A stretch of DNA of 64,000 bases from an uncultured Planctomycetaceae bacterium (GCA_963815195.1 CAWFGE010000019.1:128001-192000), one strand, 5' to 3'; counted from the first letter of the stretch, positions 2-19,565 are shown. Numbers and translations are program-made. Notes: generated by a model from the letters alone, not told the origin.

Positions 2-1354
2 ATGTTAGAAGCACATCCAGATCTGACTCGAGAGGTGATTCTCGGCTTGGGTTGGATTTATTTCCTCTTGTTTTTGATGAACGTCTGGTGGGCTTACGGC
101 AGCTTCAAGCGCCACGAGCATGCTCAGATTCGCCTGGGCGGACTCTTAGGCGACGGGCAGGATGTGCCGGTTGCGGGATTCTGGGCGCTGTATGCGGCCG
201 TTTTGAGCATGGTCGCGTTGGGGCACTTCACGGGGGCCGGAAGTCCCGACACCTTCATCATTCGCTTGCCGGAATGGCTCAAGTCCGGGGTGGACGGCGT
301 GGTGGCGAACCCCGTGACCTACTTCATCTTCTCGATCGCGTTGTTCGGGGCGATGATCGTGTTCCGGAATTGGTGGACCCGGCCCACCGTGTCCTGGATT
401 CTCCTGAACGTGGCGCTGGTGTCGATGGCGCTCGCCATGACGGATTGGGACTTCCGCCAAATCGTCGGCAAGCCGGACAACGTGCCGATCGTGTCGATGC
501 TGTTCATCGTGTCGTTCTTCACCTGGATTTATTTCACCCGCGCGGGAGACAACGACCGGCGGATTGAGCAGGGACTGCCGCTCCGCGAGAAGGCGAACGG
601 CGGCGATGAGAAAATTCTCGTCTGGCCCGACCTGGTCTATACCGAATTGATCTGCATGGTGGTGCTCACGGTGATTCTGACGGCATGGGGCATTGCCCTT
701 CAGGCCCCGCTCGAAGAACCCGCCTCCGCCGTGAAAACGCCCAACCCCTCGAAGGCTCCGTGGTATTTTCTGGGCCTTCAGGAAATGCTCGTGTATTACG
801 ATCCCTGGCTGGCGGGGGTGGTGTTTCCCAGTGTGATTCTCGTGGGGCTGATGGCGATTCCCTTCATCGACTTCAATAAAAAAGGCAACGGCTACTACAC
901 GTTCAAGGAGCGGTGGTTCGCCGTCTCCACGTTCCTGTTCGGCTTTTTGCCCTTGTGGGTCGCGATGATCGTTTTGGGCACGTTCCTGCGGGGTCCGAAC
1001 TGGAACATCTTCGGCCCGTTCGAGTTCTGGGACGTGCACAAGCTCGAGGTGTTGAACAACGTCAACCTCTCGGAGGTGGTCTATCTCAACTGGCTGGACA
1101 CATCGCTGCCCGAGGCGATCTGGCTGCGCAAGGCGCCGGGCTTTATTGCGATTTTGGTGTATTTGTTTTTGCTGCCCCCGCTCTTGGCCGCCACCATTTT
1201 CCGGGGCATGTTCCAGCGGATGGGGTTCATCCGGTATCTGGTGTTTATGATGCTGCTGTTATTGATGGCGGCCCTGCCGATTAAGATGGTGCTTCGCTGG
1301 GCGTTCAACCTCAAATACATCGTCGCCATCCCTGAATTTTTCTTCAACATCTGA
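2..1354 (+). CDS. Cytochrome b C-terminal/subunit IV (PetD/QcrC-like) membrane protein with long N- and C-terminal transmembrane extensions; the 5' end may lie outside the window
   Basis: VWPDLVYTE...APLEEPA...TPNPSKAPWYFLGLQEML...IPFID matches cytochrome b6/f subunit IV architecture (PEWY position read as APWY); about 200 aa of extra hydrophobic helices precede it. Confidence 0.8.
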   Translation: MLEAHPDLTREVILGLGWIYFLLFLMNVWWAYGSFKRHEHAQIRLGGLLGDGQDVPVAGFWALYAAVLSMVALGHFTGAGSPDTFIIRLPEWLKSGVDGVVANPVTYFIFSIALFGAMIVFRNWWTRPTVSWILLNVALVSMALAMTDWDFRQIVGKPDNVPIVSMLFIVSFFTWIYFTRAGDNDRRIEQGLPLREKANGGDEKILVWPDLVYTELICMVVLTVILTAWGIALQAPLEEPASAVKTPNPSKAPWYFLGLQEMLVYYDPWLAGVVFPSVILVGLMAIPFIDFNKKGNGYYTFKERWFAVSTFLFGFLPLWVAMIVLGTFLRGPNWNIFGPFEFWDVHKLEVLNNVNLSEVVYLNWLDTSLPEAIWLRKAPGFIAILVYLFLLPPLLAATIFRGMFQRMGFIRYLVFMMLLLLMAALPIKMVLRWAFNLKYIVAIPEFFFNI

Positions 1355-1405
1355 CGTATCAACGTATCGTCGAAATCTCCCCTCCAGGACAGGATTCGAT
1401 AAGCC

Positions 1406-4400
1406 ATGCCGGCCCCCGACACCTACTGGTATAACTTAAAGAAAATGCACGTCGTGTTCGCCGTGAGCGCGATTGGGCTGTTTGCCGTCACCATCGCGAT
1501 GTTGTGGAAAGACCACGCCCGCGAGTGGCCGGAATACCAGCAGACCTTCGACCGCATCGAAGACGCGCGGCTGACTCAGCAAATCGGCGACGAAGAGACC
1601 GCCAAGTACGATCAGCGCGTGAACGACTTGAAAAAGCGCCTCGCCGCCGCCCGCGAAGCGTACGAAAAACGTCAAGAAGAATACAAACAGGCCCACGACG
1701 GCGTCTCGCTCGATGATGAAATCGACAACCTGGCGCTCCAGGCGGACAAGAAAGCCCGCGAGGTGCGGAACCAGCGCGCCGAGCGCGACAAGGCGCGGGC
1801 CGATTACGATCTGGCGATCCGCGATGAGCGGACGAAGGCGGCCGAGCGGCTCAAAGACAAATATGACAACGAACAGTCGCAAGTCGATCGGCTCGAACTC
1901 GAATTGAAGCAGGCCGAGGCGGCACTCGACGCCAAGAAGGCCGAGCGGCAACAGGAAATGGCGCGGGTCACCGCCCTCGAAGCCGAGCTGAAATTGGCCC
2001 AGGCCGACGTCGTCCGCCTGGAAACCACCCGCAACAAAATCGATCCGGACAACTGGTTCTCGGCGGCCAAGCGCGATGTGATGCAGTGGCCGATTATCGA
2101 CGGGTTCAACTCGCCGCGAAAAATCAACCGCATCTGGCTCCCGGATTTGAAGATCACGCTGGGGATGGCCAACACCGCGCGGTTCGATCACTGCAAGACC
2201 TGCCATCAAGGCATCGACCGCGTGGAAGCCGGGAACATTCCCACGTTTCCCCACGGCACCGAGATGGTCTCCACCAGCCATGCCAGCAAAGACCAGGTCG
2301 AAAAGTGGGTGGATGAGAACAAGTACCCGCACCCCTACTCCACCCACCCCAATCCCGATTTGTATCTGTCCTCCACGAGTCCGCATCCGACCCAGAACTT
2401 CGGCTGCACGATTTGCCACGACGGGCAGGGCTTTGCCACATCCTTCGGCGACGCCTCCCATACGCCGAACACGCCCCACGAAGAAGAGCATTGGGCGGAA
2501 AAATACCACTATCACTCGAACCACTTCTGGGAGTACCCGATGCTGCCCGAGCGGTTCCGGGAATCGTCCTGCCTCCGCTGCCATCATGAAGTGACCGAAC
2601 TGGAAACCGGCCCGAGATTCGGCGACAGCGCTCCCAAGCTCGTCAAGGGTTGGCATACCATCCAAACCTACGGCTGCTTCGGCTGCCACGAGATCCACGG
2701 CAGCGAAGGCGAAAAGTCCTTGGGCCCCGATCTGCGGTTGGAGCCCAACTATTACGGCGTGGCCCAGCACATCGCCGCCGCCGCCAAGAATAAACTCAAC
2801 GACTCCGCCGGCACGGAATCCAAGGCCAAGGCCGGCGAGCCGAAGCCCGTTGAAGATCGGCTTCAGGAAATCGTCGATCTCGCCGACCGCGTGGCCGAGG
2901 CCCCGGAGAACGCCGAGCACGAGCGGAAGACGCTTCAGCAAATGATCCTCGCCGACAAAGGCCTCGAGAACCCGCTGTTCTCCGCGCGGATTCACATTCT
3001 GGCCGACGGCCTCAAAGACATCGAAAATCCGGGCCTTTACCGCAAGGTCGGACCGTCGCTGCGGTATGTCAAAGAGAAAACCACGCTGGGCTGGCTGGAA
3101 TACTGGACCGAAATGCCCAAACGCTTCCGCCCCTCGACCCGCATGCCGCAGTTCTTCCATAACACCAACCAGGAAGACAAAACGGCCGAGGCATTCCAGC
3201 CTGTGCAGATCGCGGCGATCGGGCATTATTTGCTCGAAAAATCGCAGCCGATCGATCTCTTGTCTCCGCCCAAGGATTACCAGCCGAACGCCGAGCGCGG
3301 GAAGGATTTCTTCTCGAAGAAGGGCTGCCTGGCGTGCCATTCTCATAAGGACTTCCCGGACATCCACCAGGACTTCGGGCCGAACCTGGACAAAGTCTAT
3401 GCCAAGCTGAAGCCGGGCGAAGAGGGCTTCCGCTGGCTGTATTCGTGGATTCGCGATCCGCACCGCTACCACAAGCGGACGAAGATGCCGCATTTGTTCC
3501 TCGATCCTTACACGCCGGAAGGCCAGAAGGACCTCATCGATCCCGCCGCCGACATCGCGGCCTATCTGCTCCAGGAGCGGGAAAAAGACCAGCCCGAATA
3601 CAAGCCCTACGACGTCGCGAAGGCTTCCCACGAAGGCCAAAGCACGCTCGATGCGTTGGTCGGGATGTCCTTGAGCCAGGCGCTCGGCGAGAGCCAGATG
3701 AAAAAATTCCTCGAGACGCGGATTTATCCCGCCCCCGCGGACGACATCAAAGGCGATGAAATCGAACTCGCCTACCAGGGCCAAGGCCGGCCCAGCGATC
3801 AAGAATGGCGGGCGATGAAGCTCAACTACGTCGGCCGGCGGACGATTTCGCAATACGGCTGCTACGGCTGCCACGACATCCCCGGATTCGAGGCGGCCAA
3901 GCCCATCGGCGTCGCGCTTCAGGATTGGGGCCGCAAGGACACCAGCCGGCTCGCGTTCGAGCACATCACCGAGTTCCTCAGCCACCACAACACGCCCGGC
4001 ACGGACACCACGCTCGTCGAGCAGGTCGATCAGGCGATGAAGCGCTCGAATGCCGGCGAGTTCAAGTCGGAAGAAGAGCAAGAGGAAGAACTGAGCAAGG
4101 CGTTTTATTACGACGCCATCCTGCACCACGGCCGGCCGGGATTTCTCTGGCAAAAACTCCGTCAGCCGCGGAGCTACGACTACAAGAAAATCGAAACCAA
4201 GCGCTACGACGAACGGCTGCGGATGCCCAAGTTCCCGTTCGACGGCGACCAGATCGAAGCCATCGCAACCTTCGTCTTAGGCCTCACGGCGGAGCCGCCC
4301 GCGGAGAAATACGTGTTCAACCCAGAAGGCGCGGTCCAAGCCCGCTATGAAGGCGAGTTTCTGCTCCACAAATACAACTGCACGGGCTGCCATATGGTCG

Positions 4401-5789
4401 AGCCTGCCCGAAATCCGCCAAATGGTCCCGCGGAAAGAGGAAGGCCAAGCCTCCACCTATGCCGATTATGTGGGGATGACCCGCGAGCAGATCGTGGATT
4501 GGTTCGTCCAGAACCGCGAAAAGATTCTCGACGGCTCGCTCTCGTCCTATCCCAGCGACATCCAGCAGATTGAAACCCTAAGTCAGAAATTCGGCCTGGG
4601 CGTGGACATCAAAGGCATCGCCCAACTGGCGAACGTCACCGGCACCGCGGGCGGCAAAAAGCCCGGCTCGGCCGACAAAAAGGTTCTGGATCAAAAGGTC
4701 AAAGACAACGTGCGGGAATGGTTTGTGAACCACCCCGAACTGCTGCTTTCGAGCCTGCCCGCGGCGGACGAACTGCCCTCGGGCATCCTCAAGCTGCTCA
4801 AGCTCAAACCGCCGCATAGCGGGGAGCTGAAAGACACCACCGAAAACGGGGACGCGATTCTTCGCTTCCACGGTTTGCTTTCGGGGCCGCCCGACCTGGA
4901 ATCGCCGGTGGACGAGCAATACCACGGCTACCAGTTGTGGGAAACCTTGGAAGTCGGCGGCCGGGTGTACCTGCCGGGCAAGAACATGTCCTTCACCACG
5001 CCGCAATTGGTGAGCGCGAGCCAAGGCCGCGGCGGAGCGTTCACCGATTGGCTCGTGAATCGCCTGTGGATCGAACGCCGCAAGAACGCCCAGGACATCT
5101 CGGCGATTCCCAAGGCCCGGCAGTCCTCGCCACCGCCGTTGTACTTGGAAGGATTGAAAGTGCAGACGCCGTGGCTGTTCCAATTCTTGAAGAACCCGGA
5201 ACTCATCCGCCACGAAACGGTGCTGCGGATGCCGCGATTCAACATGAGCGATGCAGAAGCCCGGGCCCTCGCGAACTATTTCGCGGCGGTGGACGATTCG
5301 CAGTATCCCTACCAGACCGTTCCCGAACGGGAGCCGGCTTATCTTGCGAAGATGAACGATGTTTACCACCAGGAGTTCGCGAAGGATGCCGACGAGCACG
5401 AAGACTATCTGAACCGGTCGTGGCACATGCTGGGCAAGAACCCGCTGTGTGTCACGTGCCATTCGGTGATGGGGCGGGAATTCAAAGCCCCCGATCCCAC
5501 GCAGGTGACGCACGGGCCGGACCTCGACACCCGCGTGCCCAGCCGATTGCGTCCGGATTGGCTGGAAGTCTGGCTCAACACGCCGCGGTGGATGTTGCCC
5601 TACACGGGCATGCCCGCGCCGCACACGAAGCCGCAGAAAGGCTATTTTGGCGATGACCCCGAACGTCAAACGACGGCGCTACGGGACGCGTTAATCAACT
5701 ACAACCGTTTGATTCAAACGGAAGGCGTAATCAAAGCCCCGCCCCCGGAACCCGCGACTCCCGCGGGCGCTCCGGCGGGGATGGAATAA
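1406..5789 (+). CDS. Giant multiheme (8 CxxCH) membrane-anchored cytochrome c with coiled-coil stalk, ~1460 aa; split by a 1-nt insertion at ~4403
   Basis: CKTCH, CTICH, CLRCH, CFGCH, CLACH, CYGCH, CTGCH in ORF 1406-4573 and CVTCH in ORF 4347-5789; removing one C in GAGCCTG gives the continuous reading CHMVELPEIRQ; N-terminal TM helix, then an E/K/A-rich coiled coil. Confidence 0.9.
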
Positions 5790-5806
5790 CTGAGGAGTAT
5801 CTTGAA

Positions 5807-6757
5807 ATGAAAAAGACTTTTTCACTCGCCACCCTGTTCGCCGGCGTTGCCGTCCTCGGCTTGATCGGTTGCGGCGGAGGCGCCAAAGACGGCACGAGCG
5901 TCGCCCTCAAACCCAATAAAGAAGAACCGGCCGCGGGCGGCACGACCACCGGCGGCAACGGCGGGACGACCACAAACGGCAGCACGCCTGCACAAACGAA
6001 AGCCGGTTTTGGCGGAATCAAAGGCCGGGTCGTGCTCGCGAAAGGCGATCCGGTGCCCATGCGGGGGATCAAAATCGCCAAAGGCGCGGCCACGGTGAAT
6101 CCGGAATATTGCGCGGCCAACAATGCCATCCTCGACAACTCGCTTGTGGTCAATCCCGAAAACCGGGGCGTGGCGTCGGTGTTTATCTACCTCAAGAAAA
6201 AGCCCAAGGGCGGAAAAGACAAAACGGCCGAATCCGAAAAACGGCCCACGATTTTCGATCAGGAAAACTGCACCTTCGTCCCGCACGGGATGGTGATGAT
6301 GACCGGCCAGGATATCACCGTCAAAAGCCAGGACCCCGTGCCGCACAACGTCCACACATATCCCTTGGGGGAAGACGGCTTCAACAAGGTCATCGACCCC
6401 ACGAACAAGGACGGGGAGCAGATGAGCTATCACGTCTCGCAGCAGGTGCCCTGCAACGTGAAATGCGACTTTCACAAATGGATGAGCGCCTATCAACTGC
6501 CGTTGGACCACCCCTACGCGGCCGTCACCGACGAAGCCGGCAATTTCAGCATCAGCGATTTGCCCTCGGGCACGCATGAGTTTGTGATCTGGCACGAAAA
6601 CAAAGGCTACCTGGAACGGGGCTACGAGATTACGGTGGATGCCGATAAGACCAACGACGTGGGCGAAATTTCCTTCAGCCTCGGCCGGCTCGCCCAAGGC
6701 GAGTTCCGCGGCCCCAAACCCAAAGTCGTCAACATCTCGTCCCTGGCGAAGAACTAG
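5807..6757 (+). CDS. Lipoprotein with cupredoxin-like domain and C-terminal carboxypeptidase-regulatory-like beta domain
   Basis: Lipobox LIGC; G/T-rich linker; HNVH and CDFHKWM motifs; HPYAAVTDEAGNFSISDLPSGTHEFVIWHE; RBS GAGGAG. Confidence 0.75.
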   Translation: MKKTFSLATLFAGVAVLGLIGCGGGAKDGTSVALKPNKEEPAAGGTTTGGNGGTTTNGSTPAQTKAGFGGIKGRVVLAKGDPVPMRGIKIAKGAATVNPEYCAANNAILDNSLVVNPENRGVASVFIYLKKKPKGGKDKTAESEKRPTIFDQENCTFVPHGMVMMTGQDITVKSQDPVPHNVHTYPLGEDGFNKVIDPTNKDGEQMSYHVSQQVPCNVKCDFHKWMSAYQLPLDHPYAAVTDEAGNFSISDLPSGTHEFVIWHENKGYLERGYEITVDADKTNDVGEISFSLGRLAQGEFRGPKPKVVNISSLAKN

Positions 6758-6759
6758 AA

Positions 6760-6809
6760 CCCAAGCCGACGCCTTGGCGTCGGTCCGCCGGCAAGCCGGC
6801 GGCTTGGGG
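6760..6809. repeat. Intergenic GC-rich palindromic element (REP-like or mRNA-stabilising stem-loop)
   Basis: Outer CCCAAGCC...GGCTTGGG, with alternative hairpins CCGACGCC-TT-GGCGTCGG and CCGCCGGC-AA-GCCGGCGG. Confidence 0.6.
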
Positions 6810-6918
6810 TGATGCCCTCGTTGAATTGACCGGCGCGACGGATTCACCTAAGAAATAACTAACGACTCGAAAACAGACATCATTGTTTAAGACATTTATT
6901 TTGACCGAGGGACTCTCG

Positions 6919-8667
6919 ATGAGAACCCGATTTTTCGTTGTGGCTTCTACAGTATTGACCGCCGTCTTCGCCGGGTGTGGACCTCCGGAGGCGGAGTTCT
7001 CCTGGAACGAGCGCACAGAAGACCTGTTGCCCAAGGCCCGAAAAGCGGTCCACGACGCGGTGACGGGCCACTTCGGGACGCCGGCGAAGATGGAAGGCTG
7101 GCAGCGGCTGCCGATCGAGTTCGGCGGAGCGGCCGGCACGATGACGAGCGCGAGCCGGGATGACGACAGCGACCTGGTCACAGAATTGACGATCGACTTC
7201 AAGGCCCCTGCGGTGCTCGTGAAATACGACCACAATCTCGACGGAATGTTGACCGTCGATGAACTGCCCACGGATCTCCAAAAGCTTCTGTCCGAAAAAG
7301 TCGGGAGTAAAACGCTCCTCGAACGGGCGGACGCCGATGGCGACAAGATCCTGACCGCGGACGACCTCAAGGGCGTTGCCAGCCGGCTGCCGGACGAGTG
7401 GCAAAAGCTCCTCGGCGAAACCGCGAACCCGGTGAACGACGAGACGGCCGCGGACTACGTCGGCAAAGAACTGGTGTTCGTGACGGGGAATTATGCCAAG
7501 CAAAAAACGGCGGTCCAAAGCTTCGTCAATGCGAAGAAGGGCGTCGTGAAGATTTGGCCGCCCCTCACGAAAGAGCCCGAAAACGGCGGCTCGCCGGTCG
7601 AGGTTGTGCTCGACTTCGGCGGCACGCTGCGTTCGGGGCGGCATCTTTATATGCACCACTGCATGCACTGCCACGGCGTGACGGGCAACGGCGACGGGCC
7701 GACCGCGAAATACTTAAACCCGCTGCCCCGCGACTATCGGCAAGGCATCTTCAAGTTCACCTCGACGGCGCGAAAGCTCCATCCCCAGCGCGAGGATCTC
7801 GCGCGGATCTTGCGGCATGGGATCCCCGGCACGTATATGCCTTCGTTTTCGATGCTGACGGAGACCGAGGCCGCGCACATCATCGAATACGTCCGCTGGC
7901 TGTCCATGCGGGGGCGATATGAGATCGACCTGGATACGCAGTTGGCCTTGCAAGGTGACGTTTCGAACACAGCGGTGGAAAAGCGAATTAATCAGGAAAT
8001 GGCCTCCTATGAAGCCGCGGTGAAAGACAAGCGCGAGGTGGAGAAAGTCACGCCGCAGTCCATACGGTCCGAAGTCGAGAAAGATCTCGCGGACATTCTG
8101 GAATCGTTTCCGGAGATGATGGACACGGCCGGCACCCAAATGGCGGACAAATGGCGCGAGTCGCAGCGGATTGCTGCCGAGGTCTATCCGAAGATCGCCC
8201 GCACGCCGGACGGCGAAGCGTCCCGAGCCCGGGGGCGGGTTTTGTTCCTCGAAAAGTGCGCGGTCTGCCACGGCACGACGGCGGAAGGCAACGGGCCTCA
8301 GACCAAGGACTACGGCGAAGACCCGATCACCAAGGAGAAATACAAAGAGCCGGGCCTGTTCGACGATTGGGGTCATCCCATTCAGCCTCGCAATCTGACT
8401 TTGGGCATATATCGAGGGGGGCGGAGGCCGGTAGACATTTACCGCCGGGTCCACGAAGGCATTCCCGGCACGCCGATGGCGTCCTTTTCGACATTTAAGG
8501 ATGAGCAGATTTGGGACATCGTCAACTATGTCCTGTCGATTCCCTATGGCGGGGCGGTCGATCAGTTTGAAAAGACAAAAGTCGCCCGGAGCCGGCCGGC
8601 CGCCGAAGAGATCGCCGCCTTAAAACCGGCCGTGGCGGGCAAGGCCGATTCCGCAGACGCGAAGTAG
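6919..8667 (+). CDS. Diheme cytochrome c lipoprotein with an inserted EF-hand pair
   Basis: Lipobox FAGC; CMHCH and CAVCH, each followed by PRD/PRN and GIPGTxM axial-Met motifs; loops DHNLDGMLTVDE and DADGDKILTADD; RBS GAGGGA. Confidence 0.88.
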   Translation: MRTRFFVVASTVLTAVFAGCGPPEAEFSWNERTEDLLPKARKAVHDAVTGHFGTPAKMEGWQRLPIEFGGAAGTMTSASRDDDSDLVTELTIDFKAPAVLVKYDHNLDGMLTVDELPTDLQKLLSEKVGSKTLLERADADGDKILTADDLKGVASRLPDEWQKLLGETANPVNDETAADYVGKELVFVTGNYAKQKTAVQSFVNAKKGVVKIWPPLTKEPENGGSPVEVVLDFGGTLRSGRHLYMHHCMHCHGVTGNGDGPTAKYLNPLPRDYRQGIFKFTSTARKLHPQREDLARILRHGIPGTYMPSFSMLTETEAAHIIEYVRWLSMRGRYEIDLDTQLALQGDVSNTAVEKRINQEMASYEAAVKDKREVEKVTPQSIRSEVEKDLADILESFPEMMDTAGTQMADKWRESQRIAAEVYPKIARTPDGEASRARGRVLFLEKCAVCHGTTAEGNGPQTKDYGEDPITKEKYKEPGLFDDWGHPIQPRNLTLGIYRGGRRPVDIYRRVHEGIPGTPMASFSTFKDEQIWDIVNYVLSIPYGGAVDQFEKTKVARSRPAAEEIAALKPAVAGKADSADAK

Positions 8668-8722
8668 ACTCCTTTCCAGCATCATCCGCCGGGTTCGCCG
8701 GCGGAATTTGGGAGAGACCGAC

Positions 8723-9579
8723 GTGAAAAAGTTTTGGGTGCTATTTTTTATGTTCTGGCCGGTTTTGGCCCTGGGCGTGTGCTTTTACGCGCCGGAGGCG
8801 AACTGGTGGTTCCCCAAAGATGAGGCGGGCAGCGATCATGCCTTCACACCGATCGGCGAGCGGATCGACGACTTGTTTTACTTGATTTTGATCATCACCA
8901 CGGTGGTGTTCATCGGCACGCAAATCGCGTTGGGTTATGTGCTCTGGCGCGGAGCCGGCGGCCGGGACGAAAACAACGCCTGGTTCTCCCACGGCAGCCA
9001 TAACCTGGAAGTGATTTGGACGATCGTCCCCGCCGGGATCCTGCTGTTTATCGCGCTGTTCCAGATGGATACCTGGGCGGATTACCGGGTCAAAAGCAAT
9101 TACCCCAAACAGGCCATGCTCGCGCCGGCCGCCGAGGTGACGGCCCGGCAGTTCGAGTGGCGGATTCGCTACCCGGATCCGGGCCGGAAGTTCAAGACCC
9201 AGGCGGACGTCGACAATTGGCTGAAAAACCCCCAGCCCGACGATCTTTACACGGTCAACGACCTGCATGTCATCTCGAACCATCCCACGGTGATCCACCT
9301 GCGGTCCGGGGACGTGCAGCATTCGTTCTTCGCCCCGCACTCCGCGTGAAGCAAGACGCCGTGCCTGGCATGGTGATTCCCATCTTTTTTGAAGTCACCA
9401 AGGCCGACGAATACCATCTGCTCTGTGCGGAGCTCTGCGGATGGGGGCATTACAAGATGGGGGCCCGCATCGTGGCCCAGACCCCGGAAGACTTTCGGGC
9501 CTATTTGAAACAATTGAAGACCGAACAAAACGACGACGGCGTCGCCGAGGAATCCCAACCCGCCGCCGAGGAGAAGTGA
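8723..9579 (+). CDS. ctaC: Cytochrome c oxidase subunit II (CuA); split by a 1-nt deletion at ~9337
   Basis: HNLEVIWTIVP, ARQFEWRIRY, DVQHSF, then in the second frame LRVKQDAVPG and CAELCGWGHYKM; GTG start after GGAGAG. Confidence 0.93.
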
Positions 9580-9586
9580 GAGAACC

Positions 9587-11410
<1,824 letters not shown>

Positions 11411-11424
11411 CTCGATACCGATTG

Positions 11425-12393
11425 ATGAAACCCCTCGAATATCATCCGCTCTTACACCGCTTCGCCGTCCTCACGCTGATCGTGGCGCTGTTGCCGATCG
11501 TCATGGGGGCGCTGGTGACGACGTATAACGCAGGCATGGCCTTTCTGGATTGGCCTTCGTCCGACGGCTACAACATGTTCTTTTATCCCTGGCTCAAATC
11601 CGCGGGCGACAAGTTCATCGAGCACGGCCATCGGCTCGCGGGGGCTTTGATCGGCCTGGTTTCCATCGGCCTCGCCGCCGTCGCCTGGAAAACCGAATCC
11701 CGCAAAAGCGTCCGCTGGGCCGCGGCCGGCGTTTTGCTGGCGGTGATCGTGCAGGGGCTTTTGGGCGGCGGCCGGGTGCGATTGGACGCTCGCACGCTGG
11801 CGATGGTTCACGGGAGTTTCGCGGCGCTCGTGTTCGGATTGGTCGCCGCGGTCGCGGTCGTTACGAGCCGGTCGTGGATCGCAGGCGAGAAAACCAGCGC
11901 CGGGGCAGGCCCGTCGCGGATGTTGTCGGTGCTGACGTGGATCGCTCCGGCCGTGATATTTCTTCAATATCTGGCGGGCGGTTTTGTCCGGCACTTCGGG
12001 CTGGCCCTTCACGAGCATTTGGGCGGAGCGGTCCTCGTCACGGTGTTTGTCATGGCGACGGTGATCGTTTCCCTGCGCTCGAAACTTCCCGCGCTCAAGC
12101 GGACGGGCTGGCTGCTCTTCGGCTTTCTGGTCCTGCAGATCGGGCTGGGCCTGGGGGCGTGGGTGATGAAATTCGGCTTTCCGCCGTGGGGTTATGTCGC
12201 CGTCGCCGACTCGCTGCCGCAAGTCGTGCTGCGGACCGCGCACACGGTGAGCGGGATGCTGCTGTTCGCCGCCGCGGTCACTTTGAAGCTCAAAACGCTC
12301 CACGCCGGCTCGGTCAAATCGATCGGCGGGAAATCGCAGCCGATGCTGACCGCCGTTCCGGAAGCGTCCTTGACGTGGCAAGGAGGGCTCTAA
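11425..12393 (+). CDS. ctaA: Heme A synthase (COX15/CtaA family)
   Basis: AGMAFLDWP, FIEHGHRL, QGLLGG, VHG, LQIGLG, TAH motifs; multiple TM helices; located in the cox operon. Confidence 0.88.
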   Translation: MKPLEYHPLLHRFAVLTLIVALLPIVMGALVTTYNAGMAFLDWPSSDGYNMFFYPWLKSAGDKFIEHGHRLAGALIGLVSIGLAAVAWKTESRKSVRWAAAGVLLAVIVQGLLGGGRVRLDARTLAMVHGSFAALVFGLVAAVAVVTSRSWIAGEKTSAGAGPSRMLSVLTWIAPAVIFLQYLAGGFVRHFGLALHEHLGGAVLVTVFVMATVIVSLRSKLPALKRTGWLLFGFLVLQIGLGLGAWVMKFGFPPWGYVAVADSLPQVVLRTAHTVSGMLLFAAAVTLKLKTLHAGSVKSIGGKSQPMLTAVPEASLTWQGGL

Positions 12394-13364
12394 TGAGCCG
12401 CGTGGAATTGAAGTCGCCTCGGCATGTCTCAAGGACCGAAGCGCCCGGGAACCTGGGAGCCTTGGGCGAAGCGTCGGTCCCGCTGCCCTGGTCGTCGGTC
12501 GTCGCGGGCCGGTTGAGCGATTATCTGGAATTGATCAAACCCCGCATTTCGGTGCTGGTGTTGATCTGCGTGACGGTGGGATTTCTCCTGGGCAGCCGGG
12601 GGACGATCGAGTTCCCGCTCTTAGCACATGCCCTGTTCGGGATTGCGATGGTCGCGGCGGGATCGAGCGCTCTGAACCAGTTTCTCGAGCGGGAGACGGA
12701 CCAGTTGATGCCCCGCACTGCCAACCGCCCTTTGCCTTCCGCCCGGCTGACGCCGTTGGAGGTGTTCGGCTTCGGGATCTCGGCCGGCGTGATGGGCGTG
12801 TTGTATCTGGCGAGCTTTGTCAATCCGCTCACGGCGGTCCTCACCGCGGCCACGCTCTTGACTTATGTTTTCGTTTACACGCCGCTCAAACGCACGTCCG
12901 CGATGTGCACGGCCGTCGGTGCGATTCCGGGGGCGTTGCCTCCGGTCCTCGGCTGGACGGCGGCGGGCGGCGGGTTGAACATGTCCAGCCTGTCGTTGTT
13001 TGGGATCCTGTTTATGTGGCAGTTCCCGCATTTCCTGGCGATCGGCTGGCTGTACCGCGAGCAATACGCGAAAGCGGGCCTCAAGATGTTGCCCAGCTCC
13101 CGCTGGGGGATGACGGGCTTCCTGGCGACGGCGTATGCCGTGGTCTTGCTGCCCGTGAGTTTGCTGCCCAGCCGAAACGGTCTGGCGGGGAACGCCTATT
13201 TTCTGACGGCGGTCGTTTTGGGTCTCGGCTATTTGTTGTGCGCGGTTCGCTTTATGCGGGACGAATCCCACCGCACCGCCCGCGGGCTGCTCTGGTCGTC
13301 TCTGTTCTATTTGCCTTTGCTGTTGTTCGCATTGACCTGGGATCATTTTCAGTTGTTGCAGTAA
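12393..13364 (+). CDS. ctaB: Protoheme IX farnesyltransferase (heme O synthase)
   Basis: LIKPRI, NQFLERETDQLMPRTANRPLP, YTPLKR, GAIPGALPPVLGW, WQFPHF; TAATG overlap with ctaA. Confidence 0.96.
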   Translation: MSRVELKSPRHVSRTEAPGNLGALGEASVPLPWSSVVAGRLSDYLELIKPRISVLVLICVTVGFLLGSRGTIEFPLLAHALFGIAMVAAGSSALNQFLERETDQLMPRTANRPLPSARLTPLEVFGFGISAGVMGVLYLASFVNPLTAVLTAATLLTYVFVYTPLKRTSAMCTAVGAIPGALPPVLGWTAAGGGLNMSSLSLFGILFMWQFPHFLAIGWLYREQYAKAGLKMLPSSRWGMTGFLATAYAVVLLPVSLLPSRNGLAGNAYFLTAVVLGLGYLLCAVRFMRDESHRTARGLLWSSLFYLPLLLFALTWDHFQLLQ

Positions 13365-13505
13365 GGTTAGCTGCCCGTGGCACCCAAAACCCGTCAATCG
13401 AAGTCTGACACGGCGCTCGTCCCGGTTTTCGACAAATGAACCGGACGCGAGCGCGTTCCGGCTGATCTGAGTTACATTTTTTCGTTTCATTAAGAATACA
13501 CCGCC

Positions 13506-14930
13506 ATGTCACATTCGACGTTGGACCCGCATTCCCATACCATTCCGCCCCGTCCCATGAAGATGGGCATCCCCATCCCGAATTCGAAGCTGGGCATGTG
13601 GCTGTTTCTGGGCACGGAAATCATGTTCTTCACGGCGTTCATCGGCACGTACATCGTGCTCCGCGTGGGCTCGCAGCCGTGGCCTTCGGTCGAGCAGACC
13701 CACATCAACGTGTGGGCCGGGGGCATCAATACGTTCGTGCTGATTTTTTCGAGCTATCTCGTCGTGGTCGCTTACGAGGCGATGACCAACAAGAACTATA
13801 AGAAAGCCTGGGGGACGTTGGTGGGCGTGTTTGTGTGCGCGTGCTTGTTCCTGGGCATCAAGAGCGTGGAATACTACGGCAAATACGAGCATGACGTTCT
13901 GCCGGGCCACATCGCCGAGAGCCGGGAGCAGGCCTTAAACAAGCTGAAGCTCGAAATGGAAGCGGCAGTCAACGCCCAGGTCGCCGAGCTTCGGCCGGAC
14001 AGCCAGGTGGAGGCGGATTTGGAAGCCGAGGAAAAAACGTCCAAGGAGATTTCCGAAAGCATCGCCTTCCGCCCCGATCAAAAAATCATCAAACTCCAGG
14101 CGGAGCTCGCGGCACTGAACGACGCCGGCAAACTGGACGAGACCCAACAGGAACGCAAAGCGGAACTCGCGGGCTTCGTCTCCTTCTACAACCAGTACAG
14201 GACCCTCCGCGACCACATCGACCAGAACGTCGCCCTGGGATCGAGCTTGACGGACCAGCCGACGGTCGTGGTCACCAACGACGGCAAGGAAGTTTCCGGA
14301 ACGATCCCGCCGGGCGCGCCTCCCACGGGACCGGTCAAGCTCAATACGCCGAAGGGGGAAGTCACGATTCCCCGCGAAGACGTGAAGGAGCTGCGGGCCG
14401 GTTCGCCGCCGCCGGAAGTCACTCTCGCCCAGGTGCAGCACAAAGTGCACGACCTGCGGAATACGGTCGTCGCGGCGACATCGGGCAAGACGTACCGCGG
14501 GGTGGAACTCGTCAAGGATGAGCACGGCCACGCGGAAGCCAAGCACGAGAAAGCCGCGAAGCACGAGGAAAAAGAGGAACCCGTCAGCGACGCCTCCACA
14601 CTCGTGCTCCGCCAGGACAACGGCGAAATCGTGAAGATTCCGCGGGATTCGCTCGCGGAGGAACCCGATTATGTCTACAAGGAAGCGATGGAACCGGTCC
14701 ACGATCCCACGGTGATTGTGTACGGGAACATTTTCGCGTCCCTGTATTTCTTGATGACGGGCTTTCACGCCCTGCACGTGGTTGTGGGCATGATCCTGTT
14801 CGCGATCGTGTTGTCCCAAGGCAGCAAGATCAACGAGGCCTGGACCGACTGGGTCGAGAACAGCGGGTTGTATTGGCACTTCGTGGACCTGGTGTGGATC
14901 TTCCTGTTCCCGCTGATTTACATCATCTAA
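13506..14930 (+). CDS. ctaE: Cytochrome c oxidase subunit III with a ~270-aa soluble insertion
   Basis: [24 protein letters not shown], then after the insertion [12 protein letters not shown] and [19 protein letters not shown]. Confidence 0.93.
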
Positions 14931-15003
14931 CCAATCATTAGCCGAAAGGGGCACCGCCCGCAGGGTGGTCCGCCCTGGTTCATGGGAATAACTTGAAACG
15001 AAC

Positions 15004-15080
15004 GCCGGCGGCTAGCGCCGTGCCGCTCACGTTTACATAGAAAGCCGGCGGCTAGCGCCGTGCCGCTCACGTTTACATAG
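15004..15080. repeat. Tandem pair of identical 37-bp REP-like units (period 40)
   Basis: GCCGGCGGCTAGCGCCGTGCCGCTCACGTTTACATAG at 15004-15040 and 15044-15080. Confidence 0.9.
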
Positions 15081-15136
15081 CAAGACATTCTAAAACTCTT
15101 CGCGAATTCAAGCGTTTTTCCAACAGAGGAAGACCA

Positions 15137-15502
15137 ATGGCCGGCGGTCATCATACAAATTATTTCTTGATTTTCATCGCCCTGTGCATTTGCACGGCGC
15201 TCTCGGTGGTGGCGGACGTTGTGCATCTCGACAACCGCATCGTGCTCGCGACGATCGTGCTCGCGATCGCCACGGCGAAGGCACTGTTCGTGATGACGTA
15301 TTTCATGCACCTCAAATTCGAGGGGGCCTGGAAGTTCGTCCTGCTCGCGCCCACGATGATCCTGGCGCTGGGCCTGCCGCTCGCGCTGCTCCCGGACATT
15401 GGCGTGCATTACTACCAGACCGATGTCCCCCAAAACCAAGCCCGCGAGACGGCGGCCCAGGAAGACACCTCCCCCAATATCAGTATCGACCTGGCGCAAT
15501 GA
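15137..15502 (+). CDS. ctaF: Cytochrome c oxidase subunit IV family protein
   Basis: IATAKALFVMTYFMHLKFE motif, three TM helices, follows subunit III. Confidence 0.88.
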   Translation: MAGGHHTNYFLIFIALCICTALSVVADVVHLDNRIVLATIVLAIATAKALFVMTYFMHLKFEGAWKFVLLAPTMILALGLPLALLPDIGVHYYQTDVPQNQARETAAQEDTSPNISIDLAQ

Positions 15503-16443
15503 GCGAGAACGGCGCGGCCATCAGAGTCCAAGGGTTATCCCACCGCTACGGCGAGCACCTGGCTTTGGACGGCCTGTCGTTCGAGGTGCCCGCCGAGAGC
15601 ATTTTCGGACTGCTCGGTCCCAATGGCGGCGGAAAGACGACGCTGTTTCGCATCTTGAGCACGCTGCTCCCCGTGCAAGCGGGCCGCGTTGAGGTCTGCG
15701 GGTTCGATGTCGCGAACCAGCCGCAGGAAGTCCGGCATCAGATCGGCGTGACGTTCCAATCGCCCAGCCTCGACACGCGCCTCACCGTGCAGGAAAACCT
15801 CCGGCATCATGGGCATCTCTACGGCATCGCCGGGGCGGCGCTTCGCGGGCGGATCGCGGAACTGCTCGAGCATCTGAACCTCGCCGACCGCGCGAACGAC
15901 CTGGTGATGGCGCTCTCCGGAGGCCTCAAACGCCGGGTGGAAATCGCCAAGGGCTTATTACATCGCCCGCGGATGCTTTTATTGGATGAGCCGAGCACGG
16001 GGCTCGATCCCGGGGCGCGGATCGATCTCTGGGAATACCTGACCCGGCTGAAATCGCAGACGGGGATGACGATTCTCGTGACGACCCATTTGATGGACGA
16101 AGCCGAGCGCTGCGATCGGCTGGGCATTTTGGATCGGGGGCAGCTGGTGGCCCTCGATTCCCCGGAACAGCTCCGGGCGTCCGTCGGCGGCGATTGTTTG
16201 ACGATTCGCACCGAAGGTTCGCTTTCGGAACTGGCCGGGAAGATTCAATCGCGGTTTGGGATCGAACCCCAACAGATCGGCGATTCGCTGCGGATCGAAA
16301 AAGAGCGCGGCCACGACCTCCTGCGGGACCTGGTGGAAGCCTTCCCCGCGGAGATCGCCGGCATCACCCTGGGAAAACCCACTTTGGAAGATGTCTTCAT
16401 CAAACGCACCGGCCACCGCTTCTGGGACGCCGAGGCCGCGTAG
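15499..16443 (+). CDS. ABC transporter ATP-binding protein (NodI/DrrA-like)
   Basis: Walker A GPNGGGKT, signature LSGG, Walker B LLLDEP, H-loop TTH, C-terminal PTLEDVF; ATGA overlap with subunit IV. Confidence 0.95.
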   Translation: MSENGAAIRVQGLSHRYGEHLALDGLSFEVPAESIFGLLGPNGGGKTTLFRILSTLLPVQAGRVEVCGFDVANQPQEVRHQIGVTFQSPSLDTRLTVQENLRHHGHLYGIAGAALRGRIAELLEHLNLADRANDLVMALSGGLKRRVEIAKGLLHRPRMLLLDEPSTGLDPGARIDLWEYLTRLKSQTGMTILVTTHLMDEAERCDRLGILDRGQLVALDSPEQLRASVGGDCLTIRTEGSLSELAGKIQSRFGIEPQQIGDSLRIEKERGHDLLRDLVEAFPAEIAGITLGKPTLEDVFIKRTGHRFWDAEAA

Positions 16444-16464
16444 CATAGAAGGTGTTTTAAAATG

Positions 16465-16544
16465 TGAGCGGTAGGCGCTAGCCTCCGGTTTCGGTGAAAG
16501 GATAACCCCAAATTCAAGACCGGCGGCTAGCGCCGTGCCGCTCA
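16465..16544. repeat. Inverted pair of REP-like units (REPIN-like)
   Basis: TGAGCGGTAGGCGCTAGCCTCCGG (16465-16488) is a near reverse complement of CCGGCGGCTAGCGCCGTGCCGCTCA (16520-16544), the same unit as at 15004. Confidence 0.85.
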
Positions 16545-16649
16545 TGTTTGTGGGGGAAGGTCGCGTGATACTGGGTTTTGACGCAAACGTCGTGAAGAGA
16601 AGACGCAGAGGCCGCAACGTTTTCTCTCGAACTGAGAAGAACTTGGATT

Positions 16650-17536
16650 ATGACAGACACATTGGCTGCGACTGAGACGAAAGTTTCCGAGCGGGCGGGG
16701 CCGCGGAACTCGGCGTTCTGGCTGGTCGTGATGACCTTGACCTGGCGGGAACTGATCCGCTTCGTCCGGCAGCGGACCCGCGTCGTCGGGGCTCTGGGGC
16801 AGCCGTTGATTCTGTGGGTGCTGATCGGGGCCGGGTTTCAAGGCTCGTTCAAGGCCCCGGGTTATGTGCCGGACCAAGTGACGATGAGCTTTCAGGAATT
16901 TTTCTTTCCCGGGATTGCGGTGTTGATTTTGATGTTCACCGCGATCTTTTCCACGATCTCGATCATCGAAGACCGCCGGGAAGGCTTCCTGCAAGGGGTT
17001 TTGGTGGCTCCCATCTCCCGGCTGTCGCTCGTGATGGGCAAGCTCACCGGCGGGATGGTGCTCGCGGTCGTGCAGGCGGTCGTGTTTCTGGGCATCGGCC
17101 CCTTGCTGACAGCGGTGGGCCTCGCGCCTACAATACATGTGGAATGGACGGTGCTGACGCCCTGTCCGTGTTCGGGTTTTTGATCCTCCTCGGCTACACG
17201 CTGACGGGGCTGGGCTTTTTGATCGCCTGGCCTCTCGATTCGACGCAGGGGTTTCATGCGATCATGAGCGTGTTCCTCTTGCCGATGTGGCTGCTGTCGG
17301 GGGCGACGTTTCCCGGACAAGATTCGGGCTGGCTCAACATCATCATCAAGGCCAATCCGCTGACCTACGGCGTCGCAGGACTCCGGCGGCTGATGTATCC
17401 CCACGTGGAGTTTCTGCCGGGCCAGGGCCTGCCGCCGATGTGGTTATGCGTGTTGGTGACCTGCCTGTTCTGCGCAGCCTGCGTGATAGGCTCCGTCCTG
17501 TTGACCCGCCGCCGCTCCGCGGCGAATACGACATAG
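16650..17536 (+). CDS. ABC-2 type permease (NodJ/DrrB-like); frameshift at ~17159
   Basis: RELIRFVRQ, FFFPG, IIEDRREGFLQGVLVAP, then in the second frame PMWLLSGATFP and NPLTYGV. Confidence 0.9.
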
Positions 17537-17581
17537 AGGCGATTTCCCGCCGCGAACCCGACTGACAACGGACCACCCACG

Positions 17582-18859
17582 ATGAGCCAAGTCACCGAGC
17601 GAGATAGAACATCCTCATCCCCTCTCATTATCAGCTTCTGGACGTTCTCGTTTCTGATGCTGCTGATGGCCGGGGGTTTTGGGGTTTGGAAATATAACGC
17701 GACGCGGCGCGCCGCGGAGATGGCGGCCGAGCGTGCGGCGGCGGAGCGGGCGAAGCTCTTGGCGGTTCAGAAAGCCCAGGCCAACCCGTGGCCGAAATCC
17801 GGCGTGGAGAATTTTTCCTTGGTCGACCAGACCGGGGCGAAGGTTACGAAAGCCGACCTCTTGGGCAAGCCCTGGGCGGCGTGCTTTGTGTTCACGCGGT
17901 GCGCGGGGCAATGCCTGAACATCATGGCGGGCATGCAGGAGGTTTCGGACGAGTTGCAGGACGCCGACGTCCGGTTGGTGACGATCAGCGTCGATCCCGA
18001 TTACGACACGCCGGAGGTCCTGGCCCCTTACGCCCAGGGCTTCGGAGCCGACCCCGCGCGGTGGCTGTTTCTCACGGGGGACAAGAAGGACATTTACCAT
18101 CTCATCCAGAAGAGTTTCCTGTTGCCGGTGGAGGAATCGACCGGGCCGGACCGCAAACCAGGTTACGAGGTGGTCCACTCGCCGGACATTCTGCACGTCA
18201 ACGCCCAGGGGCAGGTCGTAGGGCGATACAACGGCCTCGAGGAACTCGACCGCAAAAGGCTCATCAAAGCCATGAAACAGGAGGCCGCGGAGATCCGAGC
18301 CCAAAACGGTTTCGAGCTCACCGAACGGAGCGGCCGGAAAGTCACGGATAACGATCTTCTGGGACAGCCGTGGGCGGCGTGTTTTATCTTTACGCGGTGC
18401 GCGGGCCAGTGTTTGCAAATCTCGAACAACATGTATCAGTTGCACCAGGAACTCAAAGACGCCCCGGTGCGGCTGGTGACGATCACGGTCGATCCCGATT
18501 TCGACACGCCGGAGGTGCTCAAGAATTACGCGGACAACTTCGGGGCCGACCCCGACCGCTGGCTGTTTCTGACGGGCGAGAAGGATTACGTTTATCCGCT
18601 GCTGCAGAAGCATTTCAAGCAGATCGTGCACGAGTTCACCGGGGAAGACCGCATCAAAGGGTATGAGGTGCTGCACTCGTCCGACGTGATCCATTTCGAC
18701 GCCCAGGGCCGGATGAAGAAGCGCTACAACGGCTTAAACGACGCCGAGATGGCCGAACTTCGCAAGGCACTCTTGGCGGAAGCAGCGGAACTCGAGGGCC
18801 AAAAAAGTCGACCGGCCGCGGCCGAGAAGCCGATGTCTGGTAGCGAGGAACACAACTAA
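17582..18859 (+). CDS. SCO1/SenC family copper chaperone with two tandem SCO domains
   Basis: N-terminal TM helix; FTRCAGQC twice; (S/T)VDPD(Y/F)DTPEVL twice; WLFLTG twice; conserved His (VVHS, VLHS). Confidence 0.93.
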   Translation: MSQVTERDRTSSSPLIISFWTFSFLMLLMAGGFGVWKYNATRRAAEMAAERAAAERAKLLAVQKAQANPWPKSGVENFSLVDQTGAKVTKADLLGKPWAACFVFTRCAGQCLNIMAGMQEVSDELQDADVRLVTISVDPDYDTPEVLAPYAQGFGADPARWLFLTGDKKDIYHLIQKSFLLPVEESTGPDRKPGYEVVHSPDILHVNAQGQVVGRYNGLEELDRKRLIKAMKQEAAEIRAQNGFELTERSGRKVTDNDLLGQPWAACFIFTRCAGQCLQISNNMYQLHQELKDAPVRLVTITVDPDFDTPEVLKNYADNFGADPDRWLFLTGEKDYVYPLLQKHFKQIVHEFTGEDRIKGYEVLHSSDVIHFDAQGRMKKRYNGLNDAEMAELRKALLAEAAELEGQKSRPAAAEKPMSGSEEHN

Positions 18860-18861
18860 TC

Positions 18862-19287
18862 ATGCCGGTTTGGGTTTCCGCGCTTCCGACGGTCAACGCG
18901 AGTCTGAACGCCCTCGCGACGGTGTTGTTGATCACAGGATACGTCTTCATCCGCCGCAAACAGGTCGAAGCGCACAAGCGAACGATGCTCTCCGCGTTCG
19001 GCGTGTCGGTCGTGTTTTTGACGTGCTATTTGATCTATCACAGCTTCCATTTTTCCCAACCGTTCCAGGGAACGGGCTTCATTCGGCCCGTGTATTTCAG
19101 CATTTTGGTGAGCCATATCCTCCTCGCGGCCCTGGTGCCGTTTTTGGCGGCGGTGACGATTTACCGCGGACTCAAAGGCCACTGGGACAAACATCGCCGA
19201 ATCGCCCGGATCACCTACCCGATTTGGCTTTACGTATCCGTCACGGGAGTTATGATTTATTTCATGCTCTACCACTGGGCCGGCTGA
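18862..19287 (+). CDS. DUF420 family membrane protein (CtaM-like)
   Basis: LPTVNASLN, HKRTM, YLIYH, ILVSHI, HRRIAR, PIWLYVSVTG. Confidence 0.92.
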   Translation: MPVWVSALPTVNASLNALATVLLITGYVFIRRKQVEAHKRTMLSAFGVSVVFLTCYLIYHSFHFSQPFQGTGFIRPVYFSILVSHILLAALVPFLAAVTIYRGLKGHWDKHRRIARITYPIWLYVSVTGVMIYFMLYHWAG

Positions 19288-19307
19288 TGGCCCGAAAGGA
19301 TAAACCG

Positions 19308-19565
19308 ATGCGCCGCCTGCTGTTCGCTGTGAGTCTCTCGCTGTTCGCCGTTCTCGGTCCCGCCTCGACCGCCAGTGCCTGCCCGCTCTGCGCCCAGGCG
19401 AACGAAACCGAGGAAAACCGACCCAAAGCCTACATGTACAGCATTTTGTTTATGATGTCGATGCCCGCGGTGATCTTCACGGGCTTCGGCATTGGCCTCT
19501 ATCGCCTGCACAAAAAACACGCTGGGGAGCCTGGCGATCCTTTGGATCCGCACTCGGCCGAGTGA
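19308..19565 (+). CDS. Small exported/membrane protein with CPxC motif
   Basis: Signal peptide ending ASA followed by CPLC; TM helix AYMYSILFMMSMP; RBS AAGGA; last gene of the oxidase cluster. Confidence 0.75.
   Translation: MRRLLFAVSLSLFAVLGPASTASACPLCAQANETEENRPKAYMYSILFMMSMPAVIFTGFGIGLYRLHKKHAGEPGDPLDPHSAE

Follow-up and report, generated by a model that had tools for sequence, protein, structure and literature searches.

A planctomycete gene run with an APWY-type Rieske/cytochrome b complex, a predicted blue-copper lipoprotein and an A2 oxidase: a probable menaquinol-to-oxygen branch built from separable modules

Does a run of respiratory genes in an uncultured Planctomycetaceae bacterium encode a fixed III-IV supercomplex wired by hemes and copper, or two modules that exchange electrons through a shuttle? 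The run opens a stretch of 64,000 nucleotides (nt), called here the window (G000:C19:128001-192000), G000 being the genome under study (8.87 Mb, 94.6% complete; the named relatives of its proteins are Planctomycetaceae). A sequence-only reading had placed 15 co-oriented genes at positions 2-19565, and translation and Pfam searches confirm them there, all on the + strand and with intergenic gaps of -4 to 206 nt. Their order is subunit IV, octaheme cytochrome c, cupredoxin lipoprotein, diheme lipoprotein, CoxB, CoxA, CtaA and CtaB, followed by CoxC, CoxD, an ATP-binding cassette (ABC) ATPase, an ABC-2 permease, a tandem SCO protein, a DUF420 protein and a protein of 92 amino acids (aa). Together with the Rieske and cytochrome b6 genes, which lie outside the window directly upstream, the run counts 17 genes. 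We favour the hypothesis that they encode a forward menaquinol-to-O2 branch, probably composed of two modules. One would be a b6-type Rieske/cytochrome b complex that includes an eight-heme subunit, the other an A2 oxidase fed by a diheme cytochrome, and a membrane-tethered predicted blue-copper shuttle would bridge them.

The association of the two halves is not particular to this genome. Subunit IV matches are found in 66 of the 151 genomes of a phylum sample, about 50 of them strong, and in 23 of 39 closer relatives at E 1e-30. A GTDB scan, of which the best 80 of at least 600 matches were used, also gave Acidobacteriota, Marinimicrobia, Omnitrophota, Spirochaetota and Bdellovibrionota. After two duplicates were dropped, 134 distinct loci were retained; the 93 with at least 9.5 kb downstream were counted and the other 41 left out, and just 8 loci were extended by extra upstream or downstream DNA. 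In the DNA fetched, the module has an oxygen-reductase-type gene nearby in 51 of the 93, with a cupredoxin gene as well in 50. The linked enzymes are A-type oxidases in line (42 loci) or divergent (4), cbb3 pairs (3) and bd-like subunits (2), and the linked fraction by source is 26/41 for the phylum sample, 20/45 for GTDB and 5/7 for loci picked through the cupredoxin. Linkage takes at least six gene orders in several phyla and on separate branches of the tree, against a chance adjacency estimated at about 1% (within 20 kb, taking a genome of 6 Mb and two or three oxidases in it). Of the 93 loci, 24 have precisely the order octaheme-cupredoxin(s)-diheme-coxB-coxA, and the full gene order is present in Schlesneria sp. 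T3-172 (L062), a culturable aerobe. The recurrence that the first reading held possible is found in relatives and also beyond Planctomycetota.

Some of these loci have features of their own. In L010 and L017 the genes behind octaheme and cupredoxin encode a large subunit I of bd-like type and additional cytochromes, of which one has an ethylbenzene dehydrogenase heme b domain, an arrangement that recalls Nitrospira-type bd-like clusters. L070, L081 and L088, labelled Candidatus Kuenenia, group with Planctomycetaceae or Pirellulales loci on the tree, and L088 has the oxidase genes; these labels look wrong. L128, from a Phycisphaeraceae metagenome-assembled genome (MAG), carries the whole module and an oxidase. 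PMC11266412, by contrast, reports the bc1 complex as absent from the Phycisphaerales genomes that it treats. Automated annotation may miss APWY-type complexes.

Is this linkage the sign of a rigid assembly? A CoxB profile was run on 48 genomes and the 20 top regions were fetched. In 9 of the genomes the Rieske/b-octaheme part lies apart from the oxidase half; the break always falls before the diheme gene (9 cases) and the cupredoxin gene stays with the octaheme gene in 8, while in 6 divergent loci it goes with CoxB. By these positions the cupredoxin behaves as a hinge, used by both sides. Nine other genomes have diheme-coxB-coxA and no APWY subunit IV match; in the five of them that are single contigs, the cytochrome b frames measure only 478-736 aa and none is b6-sized. 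Since the oxidase half is found without the module, the diheme, which directly precedes coxB in 18 of the 20 fetched regions, would be part of the oxidase, taking the place that a cytochrome c domain has in caa3 enzymes, and the oxidase would work with other donors too. The obligate bcc-aa3-like supercomplex evoked by the sequence-only reading is at variance with these separations. A fixed III-IV supercomplex, in which ten c-hemes and one copper would form an unbroken wire, would agree with the single gene run and its exact order in 24 loci, with the anchoring of every carrier, with the cupredoxin-CoxB fusion of relatives (see below) and with the five-helix subunit III, which resembles the one contacting complex III in two known supercomplexes described in PMC8361435 and carries a large loop here. 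It is nonetheless unlikely: besides the genomes with separated or solitary halves, the partners of the module range over A1, A2, cbb3 and bd-like enzymes, a variety incompatible with one rigid interface, and the cupredoxin copies vary from 1 to 3. A facultative supercomplex, formed by clustering of the tethered carriers, is possible and is not required by the hypothesis of two bridged modules.

The continuous wire also meets a difficulty within the octaheme cytochrome. The heme count first given is correct, with seven plus one CxxCH motifs in the octaheme as assembled and two in the diheme. In locus L051 of the same genus the octaheme is a single 1465-aa frame, and exactly eight CxxCH motifs are present in the octaheme of 89 of the 93 loci. 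Three invariant histidines outside the motifs (H314, H327 and H352) come after the first motifs and five MP methionines are likewise invariant, so that we infer three His/His and five His/Met class I hemes from the presumed pairing of ligands. The model of residues 1-998, with a predicted local distance difference test (pLDDT) of 84.9, has no PDB fold match at E 0.001 in Foldseek, the only program used. Set beside octaheme enzymes of the hydroxylamine oxidoreductase/octaheme tetrathionate reductase (HAO/OTR) type, the protein has a ligand pattern and PF00034 matches that point to tandem class I domains. The serial path through all ten hemes is doubtful because His/His c-hemes usually have a low potential; three hemes of the octaheme are of this type, and the diheme is missing from many linked loci. 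The proposal that quinol electrons traverse the ten hemes in series is thus not retained. For the related anammox protein, the model of preprint 10.1101/2025.06.25.661457 places the octaheme hemes in groups.

The bridge between the modules would be the lipoprotein encoded between the octaheme and diheme genes. The H...C-x2-H-x2-M site noticed in the first reading is present and conserved: H180...C220-x2-H223-x2-M226 is the ligand set of a predicted type 1 copper site on a cupredoxin fold (model pLDDT 83.8). Across 108 aligned sequences, among them 65 fusions, all four ligands are invariant, and so is a cysteine pair; the strict ligand pattern is found in 122 of 134 homologues and 8 more have a loop longer by one residue. 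Amicyanin is the top Foldseek match (E 2.6e-05), and a wider structure search gives amicyanin, plastocyanin and kin with Z 10.6-12.0 and a root mean square deviation of 1.8-2.6 over 84-103 residues. No full-length relative of the two-domain lipoprotein was found among solved structures. The family is annotated as hypothetical or carboxypeptidase-like, and its Atlas clusters are unnamed or carboxypeptidase-like.

The wide structure search ties such carriers with other cupredoxins, and chaperones share this fold (CupA Z 9.8; Cupredoxin_1 Z 12.0, level with plastocyanin and amicyanin). The lipoprotein could then be a copper chaperone or store for the oxidase, the octaheme giving its electrons to the diheme or to CuA directly. 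The frequent position of the gene immediately before coxB or assembly genes would suit this role, as would the lack of a PCuAC gene among those seen in the cluster and the presence of four further cupredoxin paralogues elsewhere in G000. Yet its His/Cys/His/Met set is complete and its loop as long as that of amicyanin, in contrast to the PCuAC motif given in PMC9145763; it is permanently fused to subunit II in some relatives, it keeps to the octaheme in the 8 genomes that have their oxidase at another place, and it precedes cbb3 and bd-like enzymes, which have no CuA. We regard a chaperone role as very unlikely and keep the hypothesis of an electron shuttle.

The fusions came to light in an Omnitrophota MAG (L126), where a Rieske/b/octaheme module and a free cupredoxin gene are followed by a single cupredoxin-CoxB frame; the preceding profile search for longer cupredoxin forms had returned unrelated repeat proteins only. 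With the L126 fusion as query there are 421 matches; among the 120 listed, 66 cover at least 94% of the fusion and the named ones are Omnitrophica. The CoxB part of the fusions is 33-41% identical to CoxB of L051. These natural fusions tie the cupredoxin family to subunit II.

For the complex III half, the sequence-only reading had looked to the DNA upstream of the window for the missing Rieske and cytochrome b genes, and both are there with intact cofactor motifs, 71 nt apart, the b6 gene ending 361 nt before subunit IV. Cytochrome b is hence split into b6 and subunit IV. APWY is present in 133 of 134 subunit IV homologues, 80 of which were preselected for it by the GTDB scan pattern, which itself demanded APWY. 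The heme cn motif of the b6 homologues is WCMGG in 111 of 133 and WGMGG in 14 of 133, and all 131 Rieske homologues have the Ser signature (S-F in 106, S-Y in 25). PMC4122944 defines an APWY clade by split cytochrome b and WCMGG, Planctomycetes included; PMC5600118 lists planctomycete, anammox, Nitrospina and Methylomirabilis members in its subfamily G, and according to PMC3578206 a single operon combines Rieske, split b and an atypical octaheme in Nitrospina gracilis, Kuenenia and Ca. Methylomirabilis. By its motifs the complex III half belongs with this APWY/subfamily G type, which is known but has been little studied, and it is a homologue of anammox Kustd1480-85. A tree of 126 b6 plus subunit IV pairs includes the anammox loci; it was built without outgroup or published reference sequences, is midpoint-rooted with a weak backbone, and omits 8 of the 134 loci (missing motifs or broken frames). 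The WGMGG subclade (L031-L042, L044 and L048) stands next to the anammox loci on this tree and is oxidase-linked; the motif suggests that it has likely lost covalent heme cn. The Rieske protein also has an N-terminal extension of about 140 aa (G000:C19:125842-126300), of low complexity and with repeated short KDILAAAR-type units, and extensions of comparable size occur in other Planctomycetia.

The closest PDB match of the Rieske protein is 9RK3 (E 1.6e-37), to which the soluble part of the L047 Rieske is identical at 117 of 117 residues. L047 has the layout of Kustd1480-85, that is Rieske, b6, a 567-aa flavin adenine dinucleotide/iron-sulfur (FAD/FeS) oxidoreductase, subunit IV and octaheme. 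The S-F signature and the deposit statement of preprint 10.1101/2025.06.25.661457 indicate that 9RK3 is presumably Kustd1480, whose Rieske potential is given there as +335 mV. The same preprint models an extra heme b at the dimer interface on His62 of the anammox b6, which aligns with His39 here in an HxHP motif kept by 131 of 133 homologues. Most homologues keeping His39 have no NAD(P) oxidoreductase gene nearby. In G000 none is found in the cluster, and a search with a single Kustd1483-like query gave just a 29% partial match elsewhere in the genome. In Planctomycetaceae/Pirellulaceae the modules might be imagined to lock into a heme/blue-copper-bridged III-IV supercomplex of a kind without precedent, with an interface heme b on His39. 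The first electron would go to O2, and the large drop between menaquinol and a Rieske centre near +300 mV would serve aerobic cells to drive the second to a cytoplasmic low-potential acceptor, a scheme that we hold to be quite unlikely.

In the branch that we favour, menaquinol would be oxidised at the APWY Qo site, with a Q-cycle through hemes bL, bH and cn. The Rieske protein, of predicted mid to high potential, would reduce the His/Met hemes of the octaheme, its three His/His hemes lying off the obligatory path, perhaps as a side store or a second port. The cupredoxin would take up electrons singly and hand them to the diheme or, in lineages that have no diheme, directly to CuA. CuA, heme a and a3-CuB would then reduce O2 and pump protons according to the established chemistry of A2 oxidases. 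The downstream genes would make hemes O and A and load copper, and lipid and helix anchors would hold all carriers at the membrane. G000 has futalosine menaquinone genes as well as cytochrome c maturation genes.

The Rieske/b complex could also run in reverse, the electrons of a high-potential periplasmic donor being split between the oxidase (downhill) and menaquinone (uphill). The Ser signature in all the Rieske homologues would agree with this, and the His/His hemes could serve as entry port. A donor enzyme is not linked in the annotated loci, though, and cultured Planctomycetaceae are heterotrophs, for which uphill flow would have no evident use. In PMC4122944 APWY is held to be typical of reverse operation, with a mid to high potential Rieske, but the paper itself says that no APWY complex had been characterised. 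Reverse operation thus appears highly improbable for this locus.

Several points weigh against the forward branch with its copper bridge, one being this published tie of APWY to reverse-running complexes. A Rieske near +300 mV would leave little drive to CuA. Of the 93 loci, 37 have no oxidase in the DNA fetched and 5 carry the anammox oxidoreductase; 7 were chosen through cupredoxin matches, and kin are not independent, so the counts are inflated. L133 joins the module to an oxidase without cupredoxin, and a loose pattern reveals no lipobox in 59 of 122 homologues, about half, so that not all of them are tethered. Finally, G000 has other routes, an alternative complex III (ACIII)-caa3 and two more Rieske/b complexes. 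The ACIII-caa3 operon is at G000:C12:70214-82910 and the other two Rieske/b sets are at C23:200458-203824 and C4:3298-5993. One of these sets, of PEWF type, precedes a further and different eight-heme protein that is read in two frames; in the other, a diheme is fused to a PEWY cytochrome b.

Table 1. Features of the gene run and related elements. Positions count from the first nucleotide of the window unless a contig or locus is named.
Feature	Position	Strand	Motifs or basis
Rieske protein	G000:C19:125842-126795 (same run, upstream of window)		CTHLGC and CPCHGSGF, twin-arginine RRVFL
Cytochrome b6	G000:C19:126867-127640 (same run, upstream of window)		WCMGG, four heme b histidines
Enlarged PetD-like subunit IV, 450 aa, APWY Qo motif	2..1354	+	PF00032
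Octaheme cytochrome c, membrane-anchored; helix at the N-terminus, long coiled coil	1406..5789	+	7+1 CxxCH, frameshift near 4403
Lipoprotein, cupredoxin domain (about 145-233) inserted in a transthyretin-like sandwich	5807..6757	+	model, ligands
Diheme class I cytochrome c lipoprotein	6919..8667	+	PF00034 twice
CoxB, CuA subunit II, frameshift near 9339	8723..9579	+	PF02790, PF00116
CoxA, A2-type heme-copper oxidase subunit I	9587..11410	+	PF00115 E 2.8e-147
CtaA-like heme A synthase	11425..12393	+	PF02628
CtaB heme O synthase	12393..13364	+	PF01040
CoxC, subunit III in a short form of five helices; large loop insertion, about 270 aa	13506..14930	+	PF00510
Repetitive extragenic palindromic (REP)-like repeat, 40 nt, two tandem copies	15000..15079	.	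repeat comparison
CoxD, oxidase subunit IV	15137..15502	+	PF03626
ABC ATPase	15499..16443	+	PF00005
ABC-2 permease, frameshifted near 17170	16650..17536	+	PF01061 in two frames
Tandem two-domain SCO copper chaperone	17582..18859	+	PF02630 twice; internal repeat, spacing 498 nt
DUF420/CtaM-like oxidase assembly factor	18862..19287	+	PF04238
92-aa protein, signal peptide, CPLC motif, Met-rich helix	19287..19565	+	no Pfam match
Cupredoxin-CoxB fusion (Omnitrophota)	L126:15194-16780; proteins P0126-P0192		N-terminal predicted type 1 copper domain

The oxidase half largely agrees with its first description. CoxA has the YSHPAVY motif of A2-type enzymes in place of the A1 glutamate, which is found in 8 of 65 CoxA frames of the collection, and also carries WGHH, HFH, PSAIK and GMPRR, presumably the metal histidines and K-channel lysine motifs if the usual oxidase numbering applies. 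CoxB contains no CxxCH and so no fused cytochrome c; its CuA ligands H, C, E, C, H and M are invariant in 24 CoxB homologues, the motifs spanning both frames here. A cytochrome c1, already missing from the window, is likewise without a PF02167 match in the whole 94.6% complete genome. For the EF-hand attributed to the diheme lipoprotein, two loops are recognised by motif and there is no Pfam EF-hand match at E 0.01. An EF-hand as core feature of the system was discarded, the motif being found in 1 of 42 other two-heme homologues and restricted to the genus. The loop of CoxC, which we take to be periplasmic from COX3 topology, measures 290 aa between marker motifs versus 18-42 in six distant loci, and 127-291 aa across six close relatives, this genome included.

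Among the assembly genes, the ABC ATPase/permease pair is found in 14 of the 26 loci that reach them and is possibly an unrecognised oxidase assembly factor. CtaM is a DUF420 protein according to PMC9145763. A small open reading frame comparable to the 92-aa protein after DUF420 is credible in 2 of 22 loci; the 92-aa protein is possibly a metal-binding assembly factor. Further upstream on the same strand, G000:C19:117238-123218 contains a MotA/TolQ-like gene and two ExbD-like proline-rich genes, as judged by eye from the translations.

In the assembly, frameshifts split three genes, those of the octaheme, CoxB and the permease. X1, a soil metagenome run that may be the source sample, has contigs that join the octaheme frames with one base fewer at 4403 and the coxB frames with one base more behind 9339 (one contig per break, at a depth of about 4). 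The permease break near 17170 is outside the X1 read cover, and the permease is intact in relatives. Breaks also occur in three genomes of the same genus, in other genes or at other positions, and are missing from most relatives; this is the pattern expected of long-read indel errors. Programmed frameshifting is rejected, as the breaks vary among same-genus genomes and two are absent from the X1 contigs. Four gaps of the run measure 141-206 nt, and two of the four contain the REP-like palindromic repeat, whose third copy is at 16515-16554; with 211 genome-wide copies at up to 2 mismatches, the repeat is not operon-specific. A promoter scan of the run was uninformative (8 hits versus 4.4 expected), and so was a terminator scan (36 versus 23.4 expected), in which no hit stood clearly at its end.

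Both the complex III half and the oxidase belong to kinds already known, and blue-copper links between Rieske/b complexes and oxidases have archaeal precedents (PMC2946596, PMC3509893). No account of the oxidase-linked cluster or of the fusion was met in the literature searched, whose scope did not extend to subscription papers on multiple Rieske/cytb complexes and on the anammox and Methylomirabilis complexomes. APWY complexes are widespread (at least 600 GTDB matches) and, in the literature searched, uncharacterised beyond one isolated Rieske domain. That they are linked to oxygen reductases speaks against the published view of APWY as a sign of reverse operation, and culturable aerobes such as Schlesneria sp. 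T3-172 allow the direction of APWY complexes to be examined. The persistence of the high-potential Rieske signature and of the extra-heme histidine without NAD(P) oxidoreductase gene provides a control for the anammox model. If the proposed role is true, the cupredoxin family would be a new class of electron donor for heme-copper oxidases, fused to subunit II in Omnitrophota.

Compared with the anammox Kustd1480-85 type, represented by L047, the Rieske protein is 40%, b6 58% and subunit IV 45% identical. Both have WCMGG, APWY, the S-F signature and the proposed extra-heme histidine (62 there, 39 here), and their octahemes possess the same eight motifs and five MP methionines. The octaheme has about 1460 aa here versus 950 aa in the anammox type, and the NAD(P) oxidoreductase gene belongs to the anammox cluster and not to this one. 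Here cupredoxin, diheme and A2 oxidase follow, whereas two anammox-type genomes searched gave no CoxB-profile match. The APWY clade, or subfamily G, shares split b, WCMGG and APWY with this complex and counts planctomycete members; a cupredoxin or oxidase link is not discussed in the accessible text of PMC4122944 and PMC5600118, though Figure S1 of the latter presents gene neighbourhoods with oxidase domains in its legend and the linkage could be drawn there.

The actinobacterial bcc-aa3 supercomplex (III2IV2, PMC8361435) similarly takes electrons from menaquinol to O2 with no need of a soluble cytochrome c, and has a diheme cytochrome before CuA and a five-helix subunit III. Its cytochrome b is an unsplit PDWY form and its diheme, QcrC, is part of complex III and forms the only link, while here b is split with APWY and the diheme travels with the oxidase; neither a cupredoxin nor a multiheme protein is mentioned in the accessible text of that source. 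Unlike bcc-aa3, this system has an octaheme and a cupredoxin intervening between halves that are separable across genomes. ACIII with caa3 or aa3 is alike in that multiheme and lipoprotein cytochromes encoded in one operon wire quinol oxidation to the oxidase. The complex is not 'alternative' in that sense, as the first reading might have implied, since none of the 15 genes matches ActB or ActC and G000 has its ACIII-caa3 operon on another contig. Among archaea, sulfocyanin is the copper protein of SoxM. The SoxM and haloarchaeal halocyanin clusters likewise join Rieske/b and a heme-copper oxidase with a proposed type 1 copper carrier (PMC2946596, PMC3509893). These archaeal systems have no c-type cytochromes, and their copper proteins are of a different family from the two-domain lipoprotein found here. 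Lastly, caa3 oxidases bear a C-terminal cytochrome c on subunit II, whereas the Omnitrophota fusions bear a predicted copper domain at its N-terminus.

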